DNA of 64,000 nucleotides from Parcubacteria bacterium C7867-005 (lineage in GTDB: Bacteria > Patescibacteriota > Minisyncoccia > Phycocordibacterales > Zambryskibacteraceae). This document shows positions 17,778 to 51,403 of this stretch, piece after piece. The position numbers were made by a program, and so were the translations under genes. The notes below the pieces were generated by a model. The model was not told the origin of the DNA. It saw nothing but the letters and a program-made list of their open reading frames with translations, and searched no databases. The first letter of the stretch is position 1, and the number at the start of each line of letters is the position of its first letter. Location: positions 190,984 to 254,983 of the forward strand of contig LFCO01000003.1 in the NCBI GenBank assembly GCA_001189165.1, given 5' to 3'.

Positions 17778-17801
17778 TAAGGTTGTTAGACCTTTATTCT
17801 G

Positions 17802-18202
17802 TGGAGGTGGTGGGATTGAACCCACGTCCATGAGGATATTTGAAACGGGTCTACAAGGCGTAGTTTAGCTTGGTGTTTAGATCTATGAACTAAAAGCTAG
17901 ACAAAACATTCATAGATCGAGCTCGATCTTAGATCCTGAAGTGAGCAGTTTCCGGATTGGAGTCAGGCAGATTATGCGCCCCCTAACTCATGCCTGGCAG
18001 TGAGGATAGAGAACGTTCGGTACGAAGAGTATTAAGCTCTTACGTATGCGAATGCGAAATCGTTTGCTCCATAAAATGGAGAAACTATTGACTTCGCCTG
18101 TGCAAGAGTTGATTTTGCACTTAGGGTTCCAACCTTTTAAAGAGTTGTTGGAGCTCTGCCTCGCACGGGTCAAAGATGTCTCGTGTCAAAACTGACACCC
18201 CC
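17802..18202 (-). ncRNA. ssrA: transfer-messenger RNA (tmRNA)
   Basis: Minus strand: 5' GGGGGUG pairs with 3' CACCUCC including the G3:U70 wobble; T-arm GGGUUCAAUCCCACC and discriminator A; lies immediately downstream of smpB; candidate tag reading frame ANDFAFAYVRA ending in TAA around 18032-18067. Confidence 0.75.
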
Positions 18203-25783: not shown

Positions 25784-26692
25784 TTATATCCCAGATGTAT
25801 TTATCAATTCTATAAATCTTCCTTCAGTTTCTGGTGTTATCCCCTGAAAGAATAATGTCATACCATTATCCATTCCTGTGTCATCAATATAGTGTGTTCG
25901 CGCATAATCTAGGTGCGCTTGAGTAAACTTCTCATCGGCTTTGAATCCAAAATAGTTTTTTAGCTGCGACATTCTTTCGGCAATCTCCATGCCGGTGAAT
26001 AGATAATGGTTCAAATATGTTTGCCTCATATCATCTAGTGATAATTCTAGTTCTGAATCTTCTGGCTTGTCCGTACGATTCTCACTGTTTCTTTTCAAGA
26101 GGTCGTAATACTCTTGAGTAAATTGGACTTTAGAAAGATCGAATCCCTGTTGCAGTGTGTCTGTGGCAGTATCATAAAACCGGGTCCGGTGTCCTTTTTC
26201 ATGAGCTTCGATAATACTCATTTGCTTTGGGGTAGCCCTCTCGCCGGTCCAAGGCACAGTCCAATTTAATGGTATGGAGCTAATCGTCGGTTCGTTAGTG
26301 GTGTAATCTACTTCCGTCACACTTTCTATCTGTCTGATGTCTTCGTCTAATTCCTTTTCGATTTTTTCTCTACTGGGGCCTGAACCTTGCTTCAATCTTT
26401 CTTCTAGGTCATCCGCGCTGATTATCTTTCCTGATGTTTTTCCTTTTAATAATTTGAACTTCTCTTCTCCAGTCCATCCATCTGGTAGGTGGGGGAGCCA
26501 CTCTTCATTTCTTATTTGGTTTAAATAATTAAGCTCCTGTTCATACAGTATGTTTATAATTTGCTGTCTAATCACCGGGTGTCGTAAGCGGCTAATCAGC
26601 ACCTCAGTATCATTACCTTCAAAATTCGCCTCACCCTCGACGGGGTTAGATTCCGATCCGCTCTCAGCTGAATGTGTAGAGAAATTGTTCAT
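25784..26692 (-). CDS. hypothetical protein with HExxH zinc-metallopeptidase motif
   Basis: ATG at 26692 (MNNFSTH...); motif SIIEAHEKGHRT. The longer ORF to 26863 is rejected because it runs through the tRNA and its repeat. Confidence 0.55.
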   Translation of the reverse strand: MNNFSTHSAESGSESNPVEGEANFEGNDTEVLISRLRHPVIRQQIINILYEQELNYLNQIRNEEWLPHLPDGWTGEEKFKLLKGKTSGKIISADDLEERLKQGSGPSREKIEKELDEDIRQIESVTEVDYTTNEPTISSIPLNWTVPWTGERATPKQMSIIEAHEKGHRTRFYDTATDTLQQGFDLSKVQFTQEYYDLLKRNSENRTDKPEDSELELSLDDMRQTYLNHYLFTGMEIAERMSQLKNYFGFKADEKFTQAHLDYARTHYIDDTGMDNGMTLFFQGITPETEGRFIELINTSGI

Positions 26693-26711
26693 ACAGTAAT
26701 AATAACTAAAA

Positions 26712-26733
26712 TTGCGGAGAGAGCGAGATTGAA
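26712..26733. repeat. direct repeat of the tRNA 3' end (copy distal to tRNA 26830-26916)
   Basis: TGCGGAGAGAGCGAGATTGAAC vs TGCGGAGAGAGCGAGATTCGAAC at 26828-26850. Confidence 0.85.
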
Positions 26734-26827
26734 CACTTGGGAAACCCACGGTTTTCCCAGTCCTTCCTCCACGGAAGAGGATGCTCCTCTCCCGACCCCA
26801 CTCCTGTTCGAATCTCGCCAAACACAG
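26734..26827 (-). ncRNA. conserved structured element, copy A (between tRNA and its 3'-end repeat)
   Basis: About 85% identical to 51252-51345 (copy B); shared hairpins, one with compensatory substitutions (A: CGGGAGAGGA-GCAU-UCCUCUUCCG; B: CGGGGAGA-AGCAGGGCG-UCUCCCCG). Confidence 0.4.
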
Positions 26828-26829
26828 AT

Positions 26830-26916
26830 GCGGAGAGAGCGAGATTCGAACTCGCGGTTCCAATTAAGGAACGACGGTTTAGTAAACCGTTGATTTAAAC
26901 CACTCATCCATCTCTC
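26830..26916 (-). tRNA. type II (long variable arm, Ser-like) tRNA with apparent anticodon ACU
   Basis: Acceptor GGAGAGA/UCUCUCC, discriminator G, D-arm UGGAUGAGUGGUUUAAAUC, anticodon stem ACGGU/ACCGU with loop UUACUAA, long variable arm, T-arm GCGAG-UUCGAAU-CUCGC; anticodon is one base from GCU. Confidence 0.6.
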
Positions 26917-26995
26917 CAAGGATTGGCCCTAATATCCTACCAGAATTTAGGCCCAAAATAAGCCCATCCTCATTTGTGCTATCCTGTATGAGAAA

Positions 26996-27312: not shown

Positions 27313-27404
27313 GGAGACGTGTCAGAGTGGTCTAACGTACCTCTTTGCTAAAGAGGCAGGTCCCTTAAAAGGCCTCGAGGGTTCGAATCCCTCCGTCTCC
27401 GCCA
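27313..27404 (+). tRNA. tRNA-Ser (anticodon GCU), CCA encoded
   Basis: GGAGACG...; anticodon stem CCUCU/AGAGG with loop UUGCUAA; long variable arm; T-arm GAGGG-UUCGAAU-CCCUC; 3' CGUCUCC-G-CCA. Confidence 0.9.
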
Positions 27405-27460: not shown

Positions 27461-28135
27461 ATGAAAATTATTAACACATATTCATTTAAAGGTGGAGAGA
27501 AATTCCTCAAGACCAAACACCCTAAAGAACTCAAGGAAGTTCAAGATGCTATCAAAGCATTGGATGCCACTCTTTGCTTAACCAAAGAGAGTAAAGAGAA
27601 AACTAAAAAAGGTCAGGTTTTGTTTTCTCCTGTAGATATGAATAATTATCTGAAACTGGTCTGTCATCAGAAAGGATGGACGACAAAAGCCGAGGAAGGC
27701 AAAAAGAGAAAGTTTGTAGAGCCACGTCACGCTTTTGGCAAAGGACGATTTCGTGAAATGGACGGTATCAAGAATAAAGTTGGTCTTGAGATTCAATTTG
27801 GGAAATACGCCTTCATGGGTTATGACATCTTTTCAAAGATGATCATTTTCAAAAACTTAAAATACATTGAGTGTGGTATAGAGATTGTTCCAAGTAATGA
27901 ATTGGTAAAATTCATGTCCACAGGAGTCTCATCTTTCGAGCAACTTCTTGTTGATTTTGAACACAGAGGAGAAAGTAATATTGATATCCCTGTTTTTGTA
28001 ATGAGTATTGGTCTTACAGATGAGGAAAAAACAAAGTCTCAAACTTTGAGAGAACTTTTCCGTACTGACAAGAAAGAAGCGCTCACGAAAATCAAGTTGC
28101 GTAAGTATAATGGATCAGCCCCTGGCCCCAAATAA
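27461..28135 (+). CDS. type II restriction endonuclease, BglII/BamHI family
   Basis: Similarity to the BamHI core (VGLEIQFGK ~ VGMEFETGN; GIEIVPS ~ LAIILMP; GVSSFEQLLVDFE ~ RVTNFEELEPYFE); catalytic spacing D-x8-E-x-Q (REMDGIKNKVGLEIQ) as in BglII; 3' end overlaps the MTase gene by 21 nt on opposite strands. Confidence 0.65.
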   Translation: MKIINTYSFKGGEKFLKTKHPKELKEVQDAIKALDATLCLTKESKEKTKKGQVLFSPVDMNNYLKLVCHQKGWTTKAEEGKKRKFVEPRHAFGKGRFREMDGIKNKVGLEIQFGKYAFMGYDIFSKMIIFKNLKYIECGIEIVPSNELVKFMSTGVSSFEQLLVDFEHRGESNIDIPVFVMSIGLTDEEKTKSQTLRELFRTDKKEALTKIKLRKYNGSAPGPK

Positions 28136-29707
28136 ACTCTCTCGAGCTTTTTTAAATTCGTCTGGCAACTCAGCAAGTTTTACACTACTGGTTGGTTGAT
28201 ACACCGGAGTCCCCATCATTCGACGGTTTAATGTTCCATCAGCGGCCGCTCTCACTCTTTCCTCAGCGATATCTAAATATTCTTTCATAATATCTGATCC
28301 ATATCCTTTGCGATCATGAATCACTGCTGCACAAACTGAGCTTCCTACGCCAAGATAGGGATCAAGTACTGCATCACCTGGGTTGGTCATGGATAACACC
28401 AATCGTTCAATAAGCTCGATCGGGAATTGACATGGATGGTCTGTTTTTTCCGGGTGATTATTTTTAACATTCGGAATATCCCAAACATCTTCGGGGTTTT
28501 TACCTAAAGGGTTACCGGACAAAGTTCCGTATTTTTCGTTTTTCTTAAAATTCTTTTTACCTGGGTACTTTTGGGGTACTCGTACAGGGTCAAGATTGAA
28601 GGTGTAATTGTCGCCTTTAGTGAACCAGACGATTGTTTCGTGTCGTCCTGAAAATCGCTTGGTGCAATGTAGACCATGGCCAAATCGCCAGATGATACGA
28701 TTGCGAAGCTTCAATCCATACTTTTTACCTATCTGATAAATCAAGGCATCTAGCGGAAAGACTTCGCCGTCTTTTGCGATATGGTTTCCGACCTGCCAGC
28801 AGATACTTCCGTCATCAGTAAGTATTCGAACTGCTTCTTCAAAGGTTTGCTCTTGTGCAGCCAGATATACATCTAAGCTTGTTCGTTTTTCGTACTCCTT
28901 ACCAATGTTATAGGGTGGTGATGTAACTATTAGTTTTACCGATTTATCTGGAATAGATTTCATTAAATCGAGGCGATCTCCTTGGAATAAAACCACATCC
29001 GCATCCGCGCTGTATTTATTTGCGATTTTAATTTTCTTCTTCCGATTGAACAGTGAGTGCTGATCTACAGCGATCACGGGTTTTTGTTTTTTTACCTCTT
29101 TTTGTTCAGTCTCCTCGCTAGTCTTTACAACATCTAAAACAATTCCCTGAATTGTTAAACGTGAAGGGTGAATAAACTTTGGCTGGAGGTCAGGATTAGC
29201 TGGCTGTAGTCTTATTTGCCCTTTTTCTTTATAGTATTTTTTGAGAGTAGCTTCGTTTTCATCTATCAAAGCAACAATTTTCTGCCCATTCTCAGCTGTT
29301 GATTGATTTCGTACAACTACCAAATCCCCATCATCAATATTTTCATCAATCATACTTGTACCTGATACACGAAGGGCATAAACTTCACCACCTTTTGGCA
29401 TTTTTGATTTTGGAATAGCTATAGTTTCTCTTTCTTGAATTGCCTCAATTGGCTCTCCTGCGGCTATAGTGCCAAGCAGAGGAATCTTTACCCAAGGTTC
29501 GTCGCTTGCAACACTGATCGCACGAGCTTTGTTATCCACCTTATCCAGATAACCCCCTTCTTTGAGCTTTGCTATGTGAAAATGTGCAGTGGAAACGGAG
29601 GCAAGCTTAAATTTCTTTTGGATATTTTCCAAAGAGGGAGCGTAACCCTTCTTTTCTAGGTAGTTTTTAATGAAGTCGAGGACTTCTTTTTGACGTTTTG
29701 TAAGCAT
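28115..29707 (-). CDS. LexA-like repressor/S24 peptidase fused to N4/N6 DNA methyltransferase (beta class)
   Basis: N-terminal 200 aa align along the whole of LexA (wHTH; cleavage-site-like IAAGEP; S24 motif GTSMIDENIDDGDLVVV; catalytic-Lys region ATLKKY). C-terminal 330 aa carry MTase motif IV LIVTSPPYNIG ahead of motif I DPYLGVGSS (beta order, SPPY). Confidence 0.75.
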   Translation of the reverse strand: MLTKRQKEVLDFIKNYLEKKGYAPSLENIQKKFKLASVSTAHFHIAKLKEGGYLDKVDNKARAISVASDEPWVKIPLLGTIAAGEPIEAIQERETIAIPKSKMPKGGEVYALRVSGTSMIDENIDDGDLVVVRNQSTAENGQKIVALIDENEATLKKYYKEKGQIRLQPANPDLQPKFIHPSRLTIQGIVLDVVKTSEETEQKEVKKQKPVIAVDQHSLFNRKKKIKIANKYSADADVVLFQGDRLDLMKSIPDKSVKLIVTSPPYNIGKEYEKRTSLDVYLAAQEQTFEEAVRILTDDGSICWQVGNHIAKDGEVFPLDALIYQIGKKYGLKLRNRIIWRFGHGLHCTKRFSGRHETIVWFTKGDNYTFNLDPVRVPQKYPGKKNFKKNEKYGTLSGNPLGKNPEDVWDIPNVKNNHPEKTDHPCQFPIELIERLVLSMTNPGDAVLDPYLGVGSSVCAAVIHDRKGYGSDIMKEYLDIAEERVRAAADGTLNRRMMGTPVYQPTSSVKLAELPDEFKKARESLFGARG

Positions 29708-29795
29708 ACTATTGACTTGATTATTGTACTTAGAGTATACTAGAAAGAAAATAGAAAATCAAAGTCGACTTATCCACAATTAATATTTAAACATT

Positions 29796-30008
29796 ATGCC
29801 CAAGTACATTAGGAACGCAGGTAAACAATGGACTTCTCAGGAAGAGAAAAGGCTTGTTCAATTAGCAAAAGAAAACACTCCGACCAGAGTAATCGGTTTA
29901 AAACTTGGAAGGCCAGCTGGTGGAGTGAGAGGAAAGGCTCAAGAATTAGATATTAGTTTGCGACCAACAAACCAATCCCCATACAATCGCACCAAGTCTG
30001 GGAAATAA
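29796..30008 (+). CDS. hypothetical small protein divergent from the LexA-MTase gene
   Basis: 70 aa basic ORF; shares the 88-bp intergenic region containing palindrome AGTATACT. Confidence 0.45.
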   Translation: MPKYIRNAGKQWTSQEEKRLVQLAKENTPTRVIGLKLGRPAGGVRGKAQELDISLRPTNQSPYNRTKSGK

Positions 30009-30019
30009 TTTAACAATCT

Positions 30020-31210
30020 ATGGAGCAAATTGAAGAATTAATTAAAAAAGCAAAAGACGACTCGGTTAACGTATCCAGCCTGCTCAGGGATATAAAGATG
30101 TTGCTCAGTGAACTTAATCAACCATTGCCAGAGTGGGTAGCTTCTGAGCTCGAAGGATATGGTAAGGCAAAGGTACCGAAGTACAGGCAGATAAAAGGAC
30201 AAATGAAAGCATGGAATCCTTTTTATGGATGGGTTCCTGTGATTCATAAGAGTTCTGAAATTGAAAATAAGGTATGTACTAGAGGTTCAGGCCAATCGAT
30301 TCGAGAATTAGAGGAATTACTTGCTGACAAATCTTCTAGTAGTTACGAGATGCCTTACCCAGCATCATTTGCAGATCAAATAATTGAAGGCGGCACGAGA
30401 ACAAAAGTGTCTCTATTTATTAGCCGCACCTCACTCACGCATATTTTAGAAACAGTAAGAAACAAGATTCTGGATTTGTTACTTGAGCTTAAGAAAAGTG
30501 ATGGTGCTGTTGAGAGAACGACAGGCGAGGTTCAGAAGGCTGTCGGAGGTATGAGATTGCCAGGTGGAATTGCACTCGGCCCATTGATGTTTAGTAAAGA
30601 TGGGAAGACAGCGAGCACAATAATGGGTCCAGCAATTATCCCATTTGATTACGGTATTACTAATTCACTCAACAATCTAAATAGAACTGATCTACCACAC
30701 GATGAGTTCCAATCAGCTTTTAATTCTCAAGTAGAAGATTTGATTGCCGAAACGCTTATATATTTTCAAAACCGACTGAAGCCTGTAGTCAAAGGAAACT
30801 CGGGGCAATTTAATAGTATCGATCGATGTATTAAGGAATATGAAAAATGCGAAATTGATGTAAAGAATTTGTGTGATGCCGAATTTCTTTTAAAAGTTGA
30901 TCAGGTACGTGGTAGAAAACACCATTCAGACAGGCGTTATGACGCTGATTACTCCATAGGTGAAGTCAGCTATGATTCAGTTGAAAAACTAAGAGAACTG
31001 AATCGTAAGGTACATACAATAATTCACGCCTTGAATGACAGTCTAGCTGTAACTCATAAAGACTACGACGTTAAGGTCACTCAGACAGCGAATAGCGTAT
31101 CAATCGAATTTACTGCAACAAGTCATGCTTTTGACTTAACTCGTGGCGGAAAGACTGTTCCTAAGAAGGAGAAGGACTCTGGTGACGAAGGGTTGGCTGG
31201 TAAGAGTTAA
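30020..31210 (+). CDS. hypothetical 396-aa protein in the R-M island (possible HEPN-like Abi protein)
   Basis: No recognisable family; weak Rx4H motif RGRKHH near the C-terminus; location next to the R-M pair. Confidence 0.5.
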   Translation: MEQIEELIKKAKDDSVNVSSLLRDIKMLLSELNQPLPEWVASELEGYGKAKVPKYRQIKGQMKAWNPFYGWVPVIHKSSEIENKVCTRGSGQSIRELEELLADKSSSSYEMPYPASFADQIIEGGTRTKVSLFISRTSLTHILETVRNKILDLLLELKKSDGAVERTTGEVQKAVGGMRLPGGIALGPLMFSKDGKTASTIMGPAIIPFDYGITNSLNNLNRTDLPHDEFQSAFNSQVEDLIAETLIYFQNRLKPVVKGNSGQFNSIDRCIKEYEKCEIDVKNLCDAEFLLKVDQVRGRKHHSDRRYDADYSIGEVSYDSVEKLRELNRKVHTIIHALNDSLAVTHKDYDVKVTQTANSVSIEFTATSHAFDLTRGGKTVPKKEKDSGDEGLAGKS

Positions 31211-35783: not shown

Positions 35784-36911
35784 ATGGGATTGTTCTCAAA
35801 ATTTTTCTCCAAAAGTGAGCCAAGTGTCTTGGGTATCGACATAGGTTCCTCTGCGATCAAGATAGTCCAGATCAAAAAACAGAACGGCCAAGCCGTTCTA
35901 GAGACATATGGTGAGCTAGCGCTCGGACCATACGCCGGGGGCAATGTCGGACAAGCGGTCGTCCTCCCACACGACAAGATATCCGTGGCCTTGGTGGACC
36001 TCATGTCTGAGAAGGAAGTAAATATCAGTACCAACAAATGTGGGATGTCGATCCCATTTGCTTCGAGTCTCATGTCAGTGATCGAGTTTCCACAAGTTTC
36101 TCCTAAGCAACTCGGGGTGATGGTGCCCATAGAAGCGCGCAAATATATCCCTGTTCCCATATCCGAAGTGATGCTCGACTGGTCCGTCATCCCTAAATCA
36201 GAAGTAAGACCAGAAAACACCGAAGAAAAGATGCTCGGACCTGATGGTAAAGAAGTCGTACCATCTGCACCAAAGATAGATGTGCTCGTCGTGGCGATCC
36301 ACAACGACACCATAGCCAAATACCAAGACATAGTCGCCAAGTCCGGACTCGAAGCAGGATTTTTTGAGATAGAAATATTCTCTACCATGCGTGCAGTACT
36401 CGACGAATCTCTAGCACCGGTGATGATCATGGACATGGGGGCTGCTTCGACCAAACTTTATCTGATTGAGCGGGGGATCATCAAAGCGTCTCACACCGTT
36501 AATCGTGGTTCACAGGACATAACTTCTACAATTTCCAAATCCCTGGGCCTCCCCATGGAGAGGTCAGAGGTGATGAAGCGCACAATCGGTGCAGACGGCT
36601 CGGACAAGACTCTGACCGAAGTGATCAGCCTCACCCTCGATTATATTTTCGAAGAAGCGAACAGGACCATCCTCGCCTTCGAGAAAAAATATAACAAAAC
36701 AGTTTCCAAAGTGATCTTGGTTGGAGGTGGGGCGGCTCTAAAGGGTCTACCAGCACTCGCCAAGGCGAGTTTCAAAACTGAAGCCGTCGCAGGTAACCCA
36801 TTTGGCAAGCTCGCCACTCCTGCATTCCTTGAAAATATTCTGAAAGAGACTGGCCCAGAGTTCGCAGTGGCTATAGGTGTGGCACTTCGAAAGTTGGCCG
36901 AGCAGGAATAG
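35784..36911 (+). CDS. pilM: type IV pilus assembly protein PilM
   Basis: Actin-like ATPase fold pattern, VLGIDIGSSAIKIVQI; first gene of the pilMNO block. Confidence 0.85.
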   Translation: MGLFSKFFSKSEPSVLGIDIGSSAIKIVQIKKQNGQAVLETYGELALGPYAGGNVGQAVVLPHDKISVALVDLMSEKEVNISTNKCGMSIPFASSLMSVIEFPQVSPKQLGVMVPIEARKYIPVPISEVMLDWSVIPKSEVRPENTEEKMLGPDGKEVVPSAPKIDVLVVAIHNDTIAKYQDIVAKSGLEAGFFEIEIFSTMRAVLDESLAPVMIMDMGAASTKLYLIERGIIKASHTVNRGSQDITSTISKSLGLPMERSEVMKRTIGADGSDKTLTEVISLTLDYIFEEANRTILAFEKKYNKTVSKVILVGGGAALKGLPALAKASFKTEAVAGNPFGKLATPAFLENILKETGPEFAVAIGVALRKLAEQE

Positions 36912-36978
36912 CTGTTATAAACACCTGAAGCAACAAATTTCTTTTAAAGCTACCATTTTTGTTCTATAATTTTCCCAG

Positions 36979-37692
36979 ATGGATCCTAAATTCCAATCAT
37001 CATTTATACCCAAAGGCCCCATAGCTACTTCGGCCACTCTCGGAAGAGAGAGAAGTGGTGAACGAGGTCTTTTCGGCAACATCGCCTTATTTGTTTTTGT
37101 CCTATCTCTCTTATCTGCGGGTGGTGTTTGGGCTTATGGTCAATACTTGGAGAACAATATCGCCAAGAAAGGCAAAGACCTCGAAGCCGCTCGTTCGACA
37201 CTCGAACCGGAGTCCATCAAAGAACTCACCAGACTGAACTCTAGACTCGTGTCAACACAGTCTATTTTGTCCAAGCACACTATCCTCTCACCACTCTTTG
37301 AATTCTTAGAAAGCTCAACATATAAAACCGTTCGCTTCACCGACTTTAGATATGAGATGACGAACAAAGGCCTCACTCTGGCCATGAAGGGTCAAGCTAG
37401 GGGTTATAGTGCTGTCGCTCTACAAGCAGATGAGTTTGCCAAGAGCAAATATATCAAAAACCCTATTTTCTCCGATCTTAACCTCGACGAACGCGGTAAC
37501 GTAGTATTTTCCTTTAGAGCAGACCTCGATCCATCTATCATCTCCTACAAGAGCAAGATAGAAGCTCAAGAAGCCATAGACAAAGCGAATGCACCAACAG
37601 TTGTCCCAGTCACACCTGTCGAGACCAAGCCAGCCACGAGCACAGCGACGACAACTACTACAACCGCCACTTCGTCTAAACCTTCAAATTAA
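36979..37692 (+). CDS. pilN: PilN-like fimbrial assembly protein
   Basis: Single TM, coiled-coil periplasmic domain; Thr-rich C-terminal tail. Confidence 0.6.
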   Translation: MDPKFQSSFIPKGPIATSATLGRERSGERGLFGNIALFVFVLSLLSAGGVWAYGQYLENNIAKKGKDLEAARSTLEPESIKELTRLNSRLVSTQSILSKHTILSPLFEFLESSTYKTVRFTDFRYEMTNKGLTLAMKGQARGYSAVALQADEFAKSKYIKNPIFSDLNLDERGNVVFSFRADLDPSIISYKSKIEAQEAIDKANAPTVVPVTPVETKPATSTATTTTTTATSSKPSN

Positions 37693-37697
37693 ATTTT

Positions 37698-38240
37698 ATG
37701 AAATCTACAACCTCACTCACGCTCCTTCTCATCTCCATCGGCATTTTCTATACATTTATCGATCCAAAGTATAAAGAAGTCAAAATCCTGCGTTCGAATG
37801 CAGAGCAGTTTGAAAGCATTCTCAGTAATGTAGAAGAATTGAAAGAGAAGAGGAGTGACTTGTTGATCAAATACCAATCCATACCCAGAGTAGAAGTAGA
37901 TCGTCTGGCCAAGATGTTACCAGACAACATAGACACGGTCAGACTGGCTATAGATTTTGATTCTATCGCTGCCCAGTACGGTATTTCGATCAAAGGTATT
38001 CAGGCAGACAGTTCTGGGGTAGATAATTCCGCAGCGATCATCCAGACGGGTAGTGGTGCACCATACGAAGAAGTGAGTGTTTCATTCAGATTCGTTGCTT
38101 CTTATGACAATTTTAGGAAATTCATGGAGGACATAGAGCAGAGCCTCCGAGTGATAGATGTAAAAAGTGTCACTTTCCAAGCTACAGATAACGGTTTGTA
38201 CGAATATAGCGTTGCCATCCAGACCTACTGGCTGAGATAA
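37698..38240 (+). CDS. pilO: PilO-like pilus assembly protein
   Basis: Single TM and periplasmic domain; gene order. Confidence 0.55.
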   Translation: MKSTTSLTLLLISIGIFYTFIDPKYKEVKILRSNAEQFESILSNVEELKEKRSDLLIKYQSIPRVEVDRLAKMLPDNIDTVRLAIDFDSIAAQYGISIKGIQADSSGVDNSAAIIQTGSGAPYEEVSVSFRFVASYDNFRKFMEDIEQSLRVIDVKSVTFQATDNGLYEYSVAIQTYWLR

Positions 38241-38250
38241 ACTGAAAAAT

Positions 38251-38547
38251 ATGAAATTACTTCAAAAAAACAAAGGGTTTCTGATCATCATCGCAGTTTT
38301 TATCTTGGTTATCTTTATTTATAAAAACTTCTTCCAAGCCCCGGGCGCAGGACTCGCCGGAGAGGAAATACCTACAGTCAATGTCGGCAGTGATGTTCTC
38401 GAATTAAACAATAGCTTGGAATCAGTTACTTTGGATCAATCAGTATTCGCTACCAGGGCTTATAGAAATCTCATAGATTTCAGTACAGAGGTGATGGAAC
38501 AACCAAAGGGCAGGAGAAATCCTTTTGGTTTGATCGGGGTGGAATAA
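38251..38547 (+). CDS. hypothetical pilus-cluster protein (PilP-like position)
   Basis: 98 aa, N-terminal TM; position between pilO and pilB. Confidence 0.45.
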   Translation: MKLLQKNKGFLIIIAVFILVIFIYKNFFQAPGAGLAGEEIPTVNVGSDVLELNNSLESVTLDQSVFATRAYRNLIDFSTEVMEQPKGRRNPFGLIGVE

Positions 38548-38559
38548 TTTAAATTACTC

Positions 38560-40284
38560 ATGAGCATACTCGATGTCCTTCGAGACAAAAAGATCATCAA
38601 AGCTGATGAAATACCAGCCATAGAAGCTGAAGCCAAAAGCTCTGGCATGTCTTTGGAGCAGGTACTGGTTGCTCGTGGTATCCCCCCAGAGAAAATCCTC
38701 GAAGGCAAGGGAACTGAACTCGACATCCCTACTAGGAGCCTCAAGAACGTAGACATCCCAGGCAAAATCCTTGAATACATCCCAGAAGAATCTGCTTCGC
38801 ACTATAGATTCATACCGATCGGAGTTAAGGACGGAGTGCTCGAGGTGGGCATAGTAGATCCACACGACATAGAAGCGAGGGATGCTTTGAATTTTATTTC
38901 TTCGCGTATCAGCATGCCTTACAAGTTGTTTTTAGTGAGTGAAGAAGATCTTTCGAGTGCCCTCGATCTGTACAAAGGTCTTTCTGGAGAGGTGACCAAA
39001 GCCCTTTCCGAACTGGAGACAGAACTCACTCAGAGCATCGCCGAACAAGAAGAAAAGAGTGGTAATGAATCAGGTGAAAAGAAAAAAGTAGAAACCAAAA
39101 TAGTCGAAGACGCTCCGGTGACCAAAATAGTCGCCACTATCCTCTCATATGCATCAGATGGTAATGCTTCGGACATCCACATCGAACCGATGCACGACAG
39201 TATCCGGGTTCGTTTCCGTGTGGACGGCACGCTCAACACATCCTTGGTTTTGCCGATCAAAGTTCATTCTGCTGTTGTCGCACGTATCAAAATCTTGTGC
39301 AACATGCGTTTGGATGAAAAACGAAAACCTCAGGACGGTCGTTTCTCTGCAAAGATAGAAGGCAGGAAAGTCGATTTCCGTGTCTCTACATTCCCAACAT
39401 ATTATGGAGAAAAGATCGTGATGAGAATTCTCGATCAGAATAAGGGCGTTAAAAAGCTGGATGATTTGGGTATTTCTGAAAAAAATCTCAAACTAATCAG
39501 AGCGGCGATAAAAAAACCATACGGTTTGATACTTATCTCAGGTCCTACTGGTTCGGGTAAATCTACTACTCTGTATTCGATGTTGAATGAAGTAGACAGG
39601 GATCATATGAACGTATTGTCCCTAGAAGATCCAGTCGAATACAACATGGAAGGGGTTTCTCAGTCCCAAGTTCATCCAGAGATCGACTACACATTTGCTA
39701 CAGGTTTGCGCACCACCCTTCGTCAGGACCCAGACATCATCATGGTTGGAGAGATTCGAGACAAAGAGACTGCACAGCTCGCTATCCAGGCTGCACTTAC
39801 AGGTCACTTGGTTTTCTCTACAATCCACACCAACAATGCCATCGGTGTTATCCCACGTCTGATAGACATGGGTGTTGATCCGTACCTCATCGCTCCAACT
39901 CTCGTTTTGGCTATGGCTCAGCGCTTGGTCAGAACATTGTGTCCAGGAGGGGGTAAGTCTGTGCCAGTAGAGGACAGTATCAAGATGATGATCGAAAGTC
40001 AGTTCTCTGATCTACCAGCCCAATACAGAAAAGACGTGGTCTTCGGCAAAGAGGTTTATGAGATAGAGCCCACTCCTACGTGCATAAACGGGACATCTGG
40101 TCGAGTGGCGGTGATGGAAGTGTTGGCCATGGAGAAGAATGTGGAGGCAGTTATCTTGAAAAACCCAACAGAGATAGAGCTCTTCAAGGCAGCAAGGTCG
40201 AACGGCATGCTCACTATGAAAGAAGACGCCATCCTCAAAGCCTTTGACCGTGTCATTCCATTTGAAGAGGTAAATACGCTATAA
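38560..40284 (+). CDS. pilB: type IV pilus assembly ATPase PilB (GspE family)
   Basis: N-terminal GSPII_E_N-like domain; Walker A GPTGSGKSTTLYSML; Asp/His boxes. Confidence 0.9.
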   Translation: MSILDVLRDKKIIKADEIPAIEAEAKSSGMSLEQVLVARGIPPEKILEGKGTELDIPTRSLKNVDIPGKILEYIPEESASHYRFIPIGVKDGVLEVGIVDPHDIEARDALNFISSRISMPYKLFLVSEEDLSSALDLYKGLSGEVTKALSELETELTQSIAEQEEKSGNESGEKKKVETKIVEDAPVTKIVATILSYASDGNASDIHIEPMHDSIRVRFRVDGTLNTSLVLPIKVHSAVVARIKILCNMRLDEKRKPQDGRFSAKIEGRKVDFRVSTFPTYYGEKIVMRILDQNKGVKKLDDLGISEKNLKLIRAAIKKPYGLILISGPTGSGKSTTLYSMLNEVDRDHMNVLSLEDPVEYNMEGVSQSQVHPEIDYTFATGLRTTLRQDPDIIMVGEIRDKETAQLAIQAALTGHLVFSTIHTNNAIGVIPRLIDMGVDPYLIAPTLVLAMAQRLVRTLCPGGGKSVPVEDSIKMMIESQFSDLPAQYRKDVVFGKEVYEIEPTPTCINGTSGRVAVMEVLAMEKNVEAVILKNPTEIELFKAARSNGMLTMKEDAILKAFDRVIPFEEVNTL

Positions 40285-40292
40285 TCAATACT

Positions 40293-40682
40293 ATGAAAAA
40301 GCAATATTCGATACTCATAGTAGATGATGACAAGTTTCTCCTGGACATGTATGTGAAAAAGTTTGAGAAGTTCGGCATCCAACCAGATCTATCAGTTGGT
40401 TCTGCAGGAGCCCTGGAGAAACTCAGAGGTGGGGTTACTCCAGATGTTATTGTTCTCGACATCATCATGCCGGGTATGGATGGTCTAGAACTCCTAGAGA
40501 CTATCCGCAAAGAAAACCTTTCTCCAAGCTCTATAGTGATTATGCTCACCAATGAAGGTGAGTCCCAGAAGATAGAAAAAGCAAAATCACTCGGCGTTGT
40601 TGGCTATATAGTCAAAGCGACCAGTATCCCATCTGAAGTAGCAGATGAGATTATCAGAATCGCGGATGAGAATATTAAATAA
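40293..40682 (+). CDS. response regulator receiver-domain protein
   Basis: CheY-like: DD at residues 11-12, phospho-acceptor D in VIVLDIIMPGMDG, conserved K in YIVK. Confidence 0.8.
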   Translation: MKKQYSILIVDDDKFLLDMYVKKFEKFGIQPDLSVGSAGALEKLRGGVTPDVIVLDIIMPGMDGLELLETIRKENLSPSSIVIMLTNEGESQKIEKAKSLGVVGYIVKATSIPSEVADEIIRIADENIK

Positions 40683-40691
40683 ATACAACCA

Positions 40692-41756
40692 ATGGCATCT
40701 TCAGAAAAACTTTTAAGCGAATTAGTAGACATCGTGTTCAAAGAAGGAGCTTCCGATCTCCATCTGTCCGAAGGTAGATCACCGGTCATCAGAGTTTCTG
40801 GTTTCTTGATCCCCCTTGTGAAAATCCCATCCCTTACAGCAGAAGATTTGGAGGGTTTTGTGTCTATTTTCCTCACAGCAGATGACAAGCTTGAATTTAA
40901 AGAACAAAAAGAAGCTAACTTTGCTTATGAACACAAAGATGTTGGGAGGTTCCGTGGCAATGTCTTTCAAGAATTAGGCAAAATCTCTATTGCCCTACGC
41001 CTGATTCCTTCTAAGGTTAAAACTCTTGAAGAACTTAATCTGCCTCCTATACTTTCTTCTTTCTCCAAACGACAACAAGGGTTTTTCCTCGTCGTCGGTC
41101 CAGCTGGGCAAGGTAAATCTACAACACTTGCTAGTTTGATCGAACTTATAAACCAGGAGAGACTCGAACACATCATCACTATCGAGGATCCTATCGAATT
41201 TATCTTTGAGCCAAAGAAAGCCCTCATAGATCAAAGAGAGGTGAAGACAGATACACCAGATTTCAAAACGGCCTTGCGTGGTGTTTTCAGACAGGATGCC
41301 GATGTGGTGATGGTTGGAGAAATGCGTGATGCAGAGACTATCTCTACTGCGGTTACCGCAGCGGAGACCGGTCACCTTATCATGTCTACTTTGCACACCA
41401 ACACAGCGTCTCAGACTGTCGATCGTATTATCGACTCATTCCCTCCATCCCAACAAGATCAGATCAGAATCCAGCTCTCAGGAAGTCTGCTCGGGATCTT
41501 TTCTCAGCGTTTGATCCCTCGCATTTCTGGTGGACTCATACCTGCATATGAATTACTCATCAACAACAATGCTGTCGGTAACCTCATCAGAGAGAAGAGA
41601 ACACATGAGATCAATACAGTTATAGAGACAGGATCAGAAGATGGGATGATCGATCTCAACAGATGTCTCGCTGCGCTCGTCAAAGCGGGGGAGATCACAG
41701 TAGAAAACGCATTCTTGTATTCAGCTAATCCTCGAACACTAGAGAGGATGATATAA
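40692..41756 (+). CDS. pilT: twitching motility ATPase PilT
   Basis: 354 aa; Walker A GPAGQGKSTT; PilT-length protein without the GspE N-domain. Confidence 0.85.
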   Translation: MASSEKLLSELVDIVFKEGASDLHLSEGRSPVIRVSGFLIPLVKIPSLTAEDLEGFVSIFLTADDKLEFKEQKEANFAYEHKDVGRFRGNVFQELGKISIALRLIPSKVKTLEELNLPPILSSFSKRQQGFFLVVGPAGQGKSTTLASLIELINQERLEHIITIEDPIEFIFEPKKALIDQREVKTDTPDFKTALRGVFRQDADVVMVGEMRDAETISTAVTAAETGHLIMSTLHTNTASQTVDRIIDSFPPSQQDQIRIQLSGSLLGIFSQRLIPRISGGLIPAYELLINNNAVGNLIREKRTHEINTVIETGSEDGMIDLNRCLAALVKAGEITVENAFLYSANPRTLERMI

Positions 41757-41760
41757 AACC

Positions 41761-42969
41761 ATGCTCTATCTCTATAAAGCACTCGAAAGCTCTGGCGCAA
41801 GGAAAGAAGGCTCTATCGAAGCTGTTTCTATAGACATAGCCATAGATAGTCTCCAGAAAAGGGGGCTGATCATCGCAGAGATAGAGCCAGCAGAAAAAGA
41901 AGCTTGGTACAACCAATTTTCAATAGGTACTGGAGTGTCCAACAAAGAGATCGTCATCCTATCAAGGCAGATGGCAACACTTTTTGATGCTCAAATCAGT
42001 GCCCTCAAGATATTTTCTCTTCTATCTGCGGAGGTAGAGAATGATACCTTGCGCAAAAAGCTCGCGGTGATCACTGATGATTTGCAAGCGGGTAGTTCTA
42101 TCTCCAAATCACTTTCTAGGCATCCAGAAATCTTCTCTGAATTTTATGTGAACATGGTTAAGTCAGGTGAAGAGACGGGTAAGTTGAACGAAACCTTCAA
42201 TTACCTAGCAGATTATCTGGATAGGAGTTATGAAGTTGTGTCCAAGGCCAAAAACGCACTGATTTACCCAGCCTTTGTCATTTCTGTGTTCATCGCAGTT
42301 ATGGTGCTCATGTTCACTTTCATTATCCCTAAAATCAGTGTGATCTTGGTTGATTCTGGTCAGCCTGTACCTTTCTATACCCAAATTGTTTTTGGGATAT
42401 CTGATTTCTTTTTGAACTACGGGGTCCTACTCCTGGCCGGTCTTGTGGTAGCTGTCTTTTTGTTCATTCGGTACATAAGAACAGAGGCTGGAGCCAGGGC
42501 CTTTGCCAAATTTAAACTGGAGGTCCCTTATGTTGGTGATCTTTATAAAAAGCTCTACCTTTCCATCATCGCAGATAACATGAACACTATGGTTTATTCA
42601 GGAATTCCCATGGTTAGAGCCATAGAAGTCACCGCGTCAGTGGTAGGGAACGATGTTTATAAGGATATTTTGCTCGAGAGTCTGACTGCGGTGAAGGGGG
42701 GGAGCTCGTTCTCTCAGTCCCTGTCTCAGTATGAAGAGATGCCGGGGATGCTCATCCAGATGATCCGTGTGGGTGAAGAGACTGGGGAGCTCGGCAGTAT
42801 CCTCAAAACTATGGCCAAATTTTATCAAAGAGAGGTCGTAAATGCCGTGGATACCATGGTTAGCTTGATCGAGCCTATCATGATCGTGATGCTCGGTTTG
42901 GGTGTGGGTACACTGCTCGCTTCTGTGCTCATCCCTATATACAATATTGCTAACTCGGCTGGGGCCTGA
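41761..42969 (+). CDS. pilC: type IV pilus platform protein PilC (GspF family)
   Basis: 402 aa, two T2SSF repeats, 3 TM. Confidence 0.85.
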   Translation: MLYLYKALESSGARKEGSIEAVSIDIAIDSLQKRGLIIAEIEPAEKEAWYNQFSIGTGVSNKEIVILSRQMATLFDAQISALKIFSLLSAEVENDTLRKKLAVITDDLQAGSSISKSLSRHPEIFSEFYVNMVKSGEETGKLNETFNYLADYLDRSYEVVSKAKNALIYPAFVISVFIAVMVLMFTFIIPKISVILVDSGQPVPFYTQIVFGISDFFLNYGVLLLAGLVVAVFLFIRYIRTEAGARAFAKFKLEVPYVGDLYKKLYLSIIADNMNTMVYSGIPMVRAIEVTASVVGNDVYKDILLESLTAVKGGSSFSQSLSQYEEMPGMLIQMIRVGEETGELGSILKTMAKFYQREVVNAVDTMVSLIEPIMIVMLGLGVGTLLASVLIPIYNIANSAGA

Positions 42970-51126: not shown

Positions 51127-51203
51127 GTCGGCGTAGCTCAGTTGGTTAGAGCGTGGGACTCATAAGCCCAAGGTCGGAGGTTCGATCCCCCCCGCCGACA
51201 CCA
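51127..51203 (+). tRNA. tRNA-Met (anticodon CAU, elongator-type acceptor), CCA encoded
   Basis: GUCGGCG/CGCCGAC acceptor (G1-C72), D-arm UAGCUCAGUUGGUUAGAGC, loop CUCAUAA, T-loop UUCGAUC, A73-CCA; could alternatively be tRNA-Ile2 if lysidinylated. Confidence 0.8.
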
Positions 51204-51251
51204 AACATAAAATACCTCGCTTTATGTGGGTTGTTTTATGTTTGATTTTGG

Positions 51252-51345
51252 GAGATCGAACAGGAGAGGGGGTCGGGGAGAAGCAGGGCGTCTCCCCGTG
51301 GAGGAAGGTCTGGAAAAACCGTGGGTTTCCCAAGAGTGAGATCAG
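51252..51345 (+). ncRNA. conserved structured element, copy B (3' of tRNA-Met), followed by repeat of the tRNA 3' end at 51346-51359
   Basis: About 85% identity to copy A (26734-26827, minus strand); the distal repeat CCCCCGCCGACACC duplicates 51187-51202. Confidence 0.4.
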
Positions 51346-51403
51346 CCCCCGCCGACACCCCAGATTGATTTAGGGCCATAAGTCTGCTATTTTATAGACC
51401 ATT

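Follow-up and report, generated by a model that had tools for sequence, protein, structure and literature searches.

The 64-kb stretch of DNA that we analysed, referred to below as the window, encodes such housekeeping proteins as SecY, DNA ligase, GatA, components of the type IV pilus, SmpB and the set IF3, L35 and L20, and in addition tmRNA and nine tRNAs (ARAGORN, Rfam). Because of these genes, it is clear that the window is chromosomal DNA of a bacterium of the Patescibacteria (candidate phyla radiation, CPR) and not phage DNA. Its RecG-like protein is residue-for-residue identical to one encoded on contig DGYO01000002.1 (GCA_002396705.1) and in two Logan assemblies. The subject of this article is a small conserved element that stands in two copies, A and B, behind a tRNA-Ser gene and a tRNA-Met gene of the window. 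An initial annotation, made from the letters alone, had described at both loci a tRNA, a conserved stretch about 85% identical between the copies, and a 14-22 nt repeat of the tRNA 3' end, and indeed all of these are present where it had placed them. BLASTN gives 84% identity over 94 nt; the repeat agrees with the tRNA end at 22 of 23 positions in copy A and exactly over 14 nt in copy B. It had also been said that the gene of an HExxH protein begins shortly after the repeat of copy A, which is correct, as the repeat ends at 26713 and the real start of the gene is the ATG at 26692. Both copies fit a 39-nt block in which all but two positions are fixed, the expectation from shuffling being 0.00. 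The window holds exactly these two copies: with a covariance model derived from 70 copies, which include the two of the window, the next-best score is 11.6 bits.

The order of parts is the same at every locus. Read in the orientation of the element, it is S1, spacer, IR-L, core, occasionally a linker, and S2. S1 is the intact gene end, S2 is a second copy of that gene end with altered first bases, and IR-L is throughout the family antisense to the start of S. The spacer after S1 holds a terminator-like hairpin or the motif GARCGNAGYGA, while the linker before S2, where there is one, reads (A)GUGAGAUA with or without GCGAAGCG. In copy A, IR-L (GGCGAGAUUCGAAC) pairs with GUUCGAAUCUCGCC, and the minimum-free-energy (MFE) fold pairs it with the downstream repeat. 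Three of these features were absent from the initial annotation, namely the inverted copy of the T-loop and T-stem before each core, the terminator-like hairpin of copy B, and the systematic alteration of the start of the downstream repeat. The coordinates are collected in Table 1.

Table 1. Positions, strands and basis of assignment of the features of the window that are discussed in the text
Feature	Position	Strand	Basis
tRNA-Ser (anticodon called ACU), target of copy A	26830..26917	-	ARAGORN; Rfam tRNA 57.4 bits
S1 of copy A: tRNA-Ser T-loop, T-stem 3' strand, acceptor 3' strand and two further bases	26829..26851	-	sequence; 22/23 match to 26713-26734
IR-L of copy A, GGCGAGAUUCGAAC: inverted (antisense) copy of tRNA-Ser T-loop and T-stem 3' strand	26806..26819	-	sequence; MFE fold
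Core of copy A: purine-rich J1, hairpin 1 (26772-26794), GUGGAGGAAGG linker, hairpin 2 (26739-26758)	26736..26804	-	cmsearch 81.7 bits, E 1.6e-19
S2 of copy A: orphan second tRNA-Ser 3' end (GUUC-AAUCUCGCUCUCUCCGCA)	26713..26734	-	sequence
tRNA-Met, target of copy B (S1 = 51180-51202)	51127..51203	+	ARAGORN, Rfam
Spacer of copy B, 46 nt: palindrome and terminator-like hairpin (51216-51230 plus T tail)	51204..51249	+	terminator scan; fold
IR-L of copy B, GGGAGAUCGAAC: inverted copy of tRNA-Met T-loop and T-stem 3' strand, one mismatch	51250..51261	+	sequence
Core of copy B: hairpin 1 (51274-51298), hairpin 2 (51312-51331)	51264..51334	+	cmsearch 71.6 bits, E 6.6e-17
S2 of copy B: degenerate T-loop (GUGAGAUCAG), then exact 14-nt tRNA-Met 3' end (51346-51359)	51336..51359	+	sequence
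tRNA-Ser(GCU), normal, 400 nt from the ACU tRNA-Ser	27313..27404		
Mechanical 359-aa open reading frame (ORF)	25784..26863	-	
Defence-like cluster adjoining copy A	27461..31210		
Type IV pilus set between copies A and B	35784..42969		
tmRNA, standard one-piece	17799..18202	-	Rfam 79.8 bits

The two copies belong to a large family. In the species genomes of GTDB, an 18-mer from hairpin 2 matches 16 places, of which ten are real copies, all in Patescibacteria (Paceibacterota/Parcubacteria, Kaiserbacteria, Yonathbacteria and one from Saccharibacteria), and in metagenome contigs a 20-base motif has at least 120 matches. When the fetched loci, 0.96 Mb in all, were searched with a profile, 146 hits resulted, which correspond to at least 134 unique copies. 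The counts that follow hold among the matches listed. Every copy with a named source genome comes from Patescibacteria. The supposition that copies always sit 3' of tRNAs does not hold: 78 of the 121 copies with enough left flank lie just after (10-225 nt) a tRNA on the same strand, with 30 anticodons represented, and none of the 121 has an opposite-strand tRNA upstream, while the other 43 follow either tRNAs missed by ARAGORN (remnants of group I introns are visible) or protein genes. Such introns are common in the Patescibacteria (PMC13011429). Among the protein genes the element uses the 3' end of rpmG (L33; nine loci), the 3' end of rpsI (S9; four loci), the 5' end of an opposite-strand GT4 glycosyltransferase gene (nine loci) and the 5' end of rnhA (two loci, one for each orientation). 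Altogether, a single conserved core serves at least 34 different targets, and given the protein-gene targets we have dropped the idea of a tRNA-specific element or a mimic of the acceptor/T-arm minihelix. Tandem arrays occur at four loci (L130, L102, L157 and L140). A clustering of cores by genome is unsupported, the identity being 0.83 within contigs and 0.79 between contigs with only three within-contig pairs; as cores cluster neither by contig nor by target, arms and cores appear to have been reshuffled many times. A phage origin was also considered, and two exact-motif scans of viral contigs gave chance matches only.

The core is 68 nt long, has a mean column identity of 83%, and follows the consensus GGAAAGGGGUC, hairpin 1, GUGGAGGAAGGAAU-GGGAAAACCGUGGGUUUCCC-AG(G). 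The compensatory differences that had been noticed in hairpin 1 between the two window copies are real, and in the whole family six of nine pairs carry double changes (63 cells). In this hairpin 94% of cells are paired, none of 500 column shuffles attains either value, and if the partner is slid by one column only 60-73% are paired. The sense strand seems to be the one that folds, since G-U pairs (about 12) exceed A-C pairs (about 4). Hairpin 2 is invariant and hence without covariation, but the conservation of its 3' strand is real, because the search pattern fixed only the 5' strand. An alternative pairing of the 5' junction with the 3' strand of hairpin 1 is 86% paired and has 22 double-change cells versus 11 in shuffles. 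The junction variants GGAAA, GGGAA and GGAGU change together with hairpin 1 (columns 1-5 versus 30-34), and tentatively the two pairings may form a two-state switch.

Several copies have an enlarged core. A conserved expansion of about 55 nt (CGACCAAUUU...CGGUA.UCCGC...AUGAAGUACUC.UGUGGUG) occupies the tip of hairpin 2 in L045, L055, L063, L125 (6279-), L137 and L140, and hairpin 1 has insertions of 60-100 nt in L034/L155, L098, L145 and L115. Further, around positions 385-430 of IMGVR sequence GVMAG-S-1035112-41 (L012, labelled as a 'giant-virus MAG', a metagenome-assembled genome) there is GGGAAGGGGUCGUAGGGGAAACCGUGGGUUUCCCUA, which looks as if hairpin 2 followed immediately on the 5' junction of the core. 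This may be a shortened relative, or the contig may be misbinned and belong to Patescibacteria.

Such a core invites the view that the element acts as RNA: a cis-acting structured RNA co-transcribed with the neighbour gene, for example a new ribozyme that cleaves itself, an element for processing or insulation, or an RNA that bears a guide. IR-L would then pair with the gene end or with S2 and close a three-way junction, and the duplications would be by-products of spread. The covariation of hairpin 1 and the excess of G-U over A-C on the sense strand agree with this, and so do the conserved, purine-rich junctions with their possible alternative J1 pairing, and the GNRA-like sequences (GGGA, GAGA or GGUA) of about one in three hairpin 1 loops. 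Orientation is a further point in its favour. Of the coding bases that flank the element, 73% lie on its strand (61 copies with at least 6 kb of context), and this co-orientation with the flanking genes holds even in five of five copies at glycosyltransferase genes, although the gene targeted there is on the other strand. Across the window, GC skew stays positive nearly throughout, with weak dips near 24-30 and 34-40 kb, and yet copies A and B lie on opposite strands, so their orientation follows local gene direction and not clearly replication. In our opinion this pattern is compatible either with an RNA role or with a strand-specific DNA mechanism linked to transcription.

However, many copies have an intrinsic terminator hairpin between the tRNA and the core, and at the glycosyltransferase genes and at one rnhA gene the target is on the opposite strand, so that IR-L cannot pair with the mRNA. 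Hairpin 2 does not covary, and the RNA view leaves unexplained why orphan coding copies keep their frame and codons (see below). Nor does the element match an Rfam family, the hammerhead, twister, pistol, hatchet and HDV-like ribozymes and tRNA-like RNAs included: with Rfam 15 at the gathering threshold the window gave only tRNAs and tmRNA, and at E <= 10 both loci gave only tRNA-derived or chance matches. On balance we consider a cis-acting RNA unlikely. The suggestion of the initial annotation that the element might be a tRNA-linked small RNA is likewise weakened, because of the sites at protein-gene ends, opposite-strand 5' ends included, and because of the terminators that often separate tRNA and element.

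The architecture around the core was compared with a control in which the flanks of 106 copies were re-paired between loci by permutation. The match of the S2 region to the sequence upstream has a median of 13 observed and 7 permuted, and 72 of the 106 copies are above the 95th percentile. For IR-L against the reverse complement of the upstream gene end, the medians are 12 and 6, with 68 of 106 above that percentile. IR-L against the start of S2 gives only 6.5 versus 5 (39 of 106), and in 96 of the 106 copies S1 is a better pairing partner of IR-L than S2. The weakness of the score against S2 comes from the altered start of S2. In its distal part S2 usually agrees fully with S1, whereas at its start a small set of recurring changes is seen: UUC becomes UGA in the T-loop ('GUGAGAU', about 13 copies), AA becomes UU ('GUUCUUAUCC', about nine copies; also CCAAG to CCUUG after tRNA-Gln), or GCGAAGCG is inserted (about 12 copies). 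Thus, a stem of IR-L and S2 does exist, but with central T.T or A.A mismatches. With regard to the linker, the heptamer GCGAAGC recurs there before S2 (for example in L087, L113, L130 and L041), and the related GARCGNAGYGA stands in spacers after S1 (L046, L072, L135). The heptamer GCGAAGC forms an exceptionally stable DNA mini-hairpin.

The whole insert measures about 110-250 bp, is gene-less and has no integrase inside. The direct repeat is real, as the initial annotation had it, but its comparison with a target-site duplication does not stand in any simple form: the repeat varies from 14 to about 65 nt, reaches the end of the gene and is accompanied by an inverted copy. Purifying selection on both gene-end copies in protein genes also speaks against it. 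Since S1 and IR-L make up a snap-back palindrome that is often centred on a terminator, it may be asked whether a mobile element is needed at all, or whether template switching during local replication, or fold-back repair at hairpin-forming gene ends, has produced the arrangement. This we regard as effectively refuted, its probability being close to nil, because the same 68-nt core is found at more than 130 loci with different targets in many genomes, and repair cannot create a core repeatedly.

The protein-gene targets permit a comparison of S1 and S2 at the codon level. In the nine rpmG loci, 129 aligned codons comprise 55 identical, 58 synonymously different and 16 nonsynonymously different ones, several of the latter being located at the altered junction, and all nine orphans keep both frame and stop codon. 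The glycosyltransferase orphans have 51 synonymous and 36 nonsynonymous differences, and the rnhA orphans 8 and 4; in both, conserved N-terminal residues are kept, as is the start codon where the alignment reaches it. For rpsI the codon counts are unusable, as the automatic alignment took chance matches for L106 and L068, but reading of the sequences shows the short WSKR-stop tail kept in two of four loci. A neutral orphan would be expected to collect about three nonsynonymous changes per synonymous one. Given the excess of synonymous changes over this expectation, S2 must have been functional until recently, or is functional periodically. The S1 and S2 of one genome can differ synonymously in up to 10 of 15 codons, yet they have in common the particular amino acids of that genome. 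As to the GC content at third codon positions (GC3), the rpmG gene body has 0.61, S2 0.68 and S1 0.48, and S1 is below S2 in eight of nine loci; from this it would seem that S1 is the newcomer and that the resident end is S2. Such selection fits an element that is repeatedly gained and lost and brings its own copy of the gene end. Phage 21 and e14 likewise carry the 3' end of icd.

How would such an arrangement arise? We propose that the element is a miniature, non-autonomous, gene-less, site-specific integrative element that carries a replacement gene end and is, as far as sampled, confined to Patescibacteria. We prefer this reading, although our confidence in it stays slightly below even. 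The initial annotation had offered a tiny non-autonomous integrative element as one of its two options, and this option fits best because of the more than 130 copies, the many targets, the tandem arrays, the lack of an internal gene and the absence of the element from the matching spacer in relatives: in L158 and L159, at 50-58% protein identity, the homologous spacer from tRNA-Met to tRNA-Asp is without it.

The mobile unit, if it is still mobile as we infer, would consist of the distal part of S, the spacer, IR-L, the core and the altered start of S. In a single-stranded form, IR-L and the S arm would fold into a stem that imitates the target duplex, the stem having a few central mismatches and the core forming the loop. 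If this stem underwent one strand exchange with a chromosomal gene end, replication would then give the observed order. In general terms, a single-stranded circle or segment would comprise arm a, loop l, arm a' and the rest G, where a and a' form the stem. Strand exchange inside a' with a duplex target made up of dL and dR would lead, after replication, to dL-a'R - G - a - l - a'L-dR. In this scheme a would be IR-L, l the core and G the spacer; S2 would be composed of the element-derived altered start and the resident remainder, and S1 of the resident start and the element-borne remainder. The target gene would stay intact, since a copy of the gene end, and often a terminator too, would arrive with the element, and because a usable target would be regenerated, tandem arrays could grow. 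Loss of the element would make the displaced resident end, S2, functional again, which would explain purifying selection on both copies. Such a hairpin model could thus account for the inverted copy, the central mismatches, the element-type motifs near S2 and in the spacer, the intact target and the tandem arrays.

[quoted passage not shown] Its attP1 and attP2 lie in opposite orientation about 90 bp apart and form a forked hairpin with a mismatched centre, and its integration leaves one functional dif and two dif-like copies (PMC3089051). Our element resembles it in having two opposed target-like arms about 70-90 nt apart, a stem with unpaired central bases, tandem arrays, and three copies that resemble the target, arranged as direct copy, element, inverted copy, loop and direct copy; indeed S1, IR-L and S2 follow in the order that a CTX-type arrangement predicts, with the 68-nt core between IR-L and S2. 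In contrast to CTX-phi, the arms are matched to the ends of at least 34 genes and not to dif, the targets being ends of tRNA, rpmG, rpsI, glycosyltransferase and rnhA genes; there are no phage genes, the 'genome' between the copies amounts to only 0-100 gene-less nucleotides, and the single-stranded intermediate is our supposition. The attC sites of integrons offer another parallel, as imperfect hairpins recognisable in the folded single strand, with central unpaired bases and strand specificity. Our element, however, lacks a cassette array and an IntI context, its arms are copies of the neighbour gene and do not follow the R''/L''-L'/R' pattern, and its loop is a conserved 68-nt sequence.

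Several points weigh against our proposal. Both precedents, CTX and attC, use one fixed site and a sequence- or structure-specific recombinase, whereas at least 34 different targets would need matching arms, and the mechanism as described leaves the re-tailoring of arms unexplained. At the loci examined there is no recombinase, replication gene, enzyme partner or free form. We found no close relative with an empty site, and as the spacers of L158 and L159 are too distant to define boundaries, those of the insertion are deduced. The GNRA-type loops of hairpin 1 would suit RNA, and the two window copies are opposite relative to GC skew. Finally, the lineage-specific amino acids common to S1 and S2 would need frequent gain and loss within a lineage, or occasional gene conversion. 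A further reading would have IR-L and the gene-end copy serve as exchangeable 'address' sequences, so that a small folded strand of DNA or RNA with the conserved 68-nt core would direct a hypothetical enzyme of Patescibacteria to integrate it at any site imitated by the stem. Integration would then be programmable and homology-addressed, unlike that of Xer/IMEX, of integrons, of IS110 bridge RNAs or of group II introns, but we think this improbable.

A more conventional explanation is that the copies are decayed remnants of integrase islands, either 'solo att' scars or scars resembling cis-mobilizable elements (CIMEs), with the core as a conserved attP arm. Among the classic sites of integration are the 3' ends of rpsI, rpmG and tRNA genes (PMC5357655). 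With elements that replace 3' ends (integrative and conjugative elements, ICEs; integrative and mobilizable elements, IMEs; and CIMEs) ours has in common the kinds of target, the flanking direct repeats of gene ends (far above the permuted control in 72 of 106 copies), long or short, tandem accretion, seen in our arrays too, and a gene kept intact by an element-borne copy (PMC5357655). They differ in that our insert is about 110-250 bp, has no integrase and carries a covarying hairpin core, an inverted target copy and the ability to use gene 5' ends.

One locus, L147, is of particular relevance here, as between tRNA-Gln on one side and IR-L, core and S2 on the other there is a 7.1-kb island that encodes defence-type cargo, a large serine recombinase and a Rep of the rolling-circle type (PF23343), and islands of this type do leave tRNA 3'-end repeats. 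A remnant gene end and a terminator directly to the left of IR-L indicate, however, that the island was inserted into a tRNA that already carried the mini-element. Seven other homologous islands sit at tRNA-Gln, tRNA-His or tRNA-Ile(UAU) where the tRNA is seen, none of these seven loci has the core, and one complete island of 5.3 kb ends in a plain 18-nt repeat. We therefore rejected the serine-recombinase and Rep island as the autonomous parent, its only association with the core being the nested one. This nested, adjacent recombinase is also the only trace of an integrase in at least 134 copies. Further, one core serves at least 34 targets while integrase families are target-specific, the covariation of hairpin 1 points to single-strand structure and not to protein-binding sites in duplex DNA, the inverted target copy is foreign to attL and attR, and insertions at gene 5' ends do not fit. 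That the copies are island scars is hence, to our mind, quite unlikely. In the Rep islands themselves (L147 2227-4532; L162-L175), the large serine recombinase is accompanied by a PF23343/RepSA-like Rep and its gene overlaps the tRNA end; as cargo several of the islands have DUF2726, and some ThsB-TIR (with a SLATT protein) or Fic.

Miniature inverted-repeat transposable elements (MITEs) and REP-like repeats (Correia, ERIC, REP/BIME and IS200/605-derived PATEs) are similarly small, gene-less, multi-copy and hairpin-forming, and they are usually found at gene ends in co-orientation with transcription. In our family, however, the inverted and direct repeats are derived from the target and not from the element, so they differ for every target and are not intrinsic terminal repeats; instead of a short fixed duplication there is a variable one of 14-65 nt; and there is no known related parent that bears a transposase. 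The compensatory base pairs expected of a structured element are found in hairpin 1.

Other candidates were rejected for specific reasons. A small ORF from an SD-like (Shine-Dalgarno) GGAGG and NUG in the core into S2 is in frame at only five of nine rpmG loci, and open frames in the core result from its purine-rich composition. The differences between repeats are not adenine-specific (L079 sequences), as opposed to the template and variable repeats of diversity-generating retroelements (DGRs). Splicing is contradicted by the non-functional T-loop in the tRNA S2 and by the lack of a group I or group II core. IS91-like GAAC/CAAG boundaries are only apparent, as GAAC simply complements the T-loop and does not occur at protein-gene targets. 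The family is thus, in our opinion, one of site-specific integrative mini-elements with an unusual target-mimicking inverted arm. It is apparently undescribed: the element is unrecorded in Rfam 15 and in the searchable literature, whose coverage is incomplete, so that an earlier description is possible.

The Patescibacteria have tiny genomes with few recognised mobile elements, and here is one that sits at the most conserved gene ends (any tRNA, L33, S9) without inactivating them. If integration does proceed through a hairpin, the range of site-specific single-strand integration would widen from one fixed site (dif, attI) to many arm-matched sites, which would be of interest for mobile-DNA biology and possibly as a targeting principle. 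Even if the element should turn out to act as RNA, it is a widespread, well-conserved and unannotated motif. In the annotation of tRNAs and gene ends, confusion is to be expected from 3' ends that are not genuine, from fragments with an orphan start or stop, and from a spurious ORF like 25784-26863, which runs from within tRNA-Ser through the entire element into the HExxH protein gene. Because the purine-rich core is stop-free in two frames, gene callers may extend ORFs through such elements.

The surroundings of the two copies have some features of their own. The tRNA-Ser behind which copy A stands, called with anticodon ACU (loop UUACUAA), is an unusual A34 serine tRNA, and the same ACU tRNA-Ser, likewise followed by the element, is present in a second genome (L149); a normal tRNA-Ser(GCU) is encoded nearby (Table 1). 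The defence-like cluster next to copy A encodes a BglII-type restriction endonuclease, a protein with an AbiTii domain, and a 530-aa fusion of LexA DNA-binding and S24 peptidase domains with an N6/N4 DNA methylase. The type IV pilus set comprises PilM, two T2SSE ATPases and a T2SSF platform protein. In Patescibacteria this machinery is thought to import DNA, which bears on any model with single-strand entry. The tmRNA went unreported by ARAGORN, and the SmpB gene lies near it.

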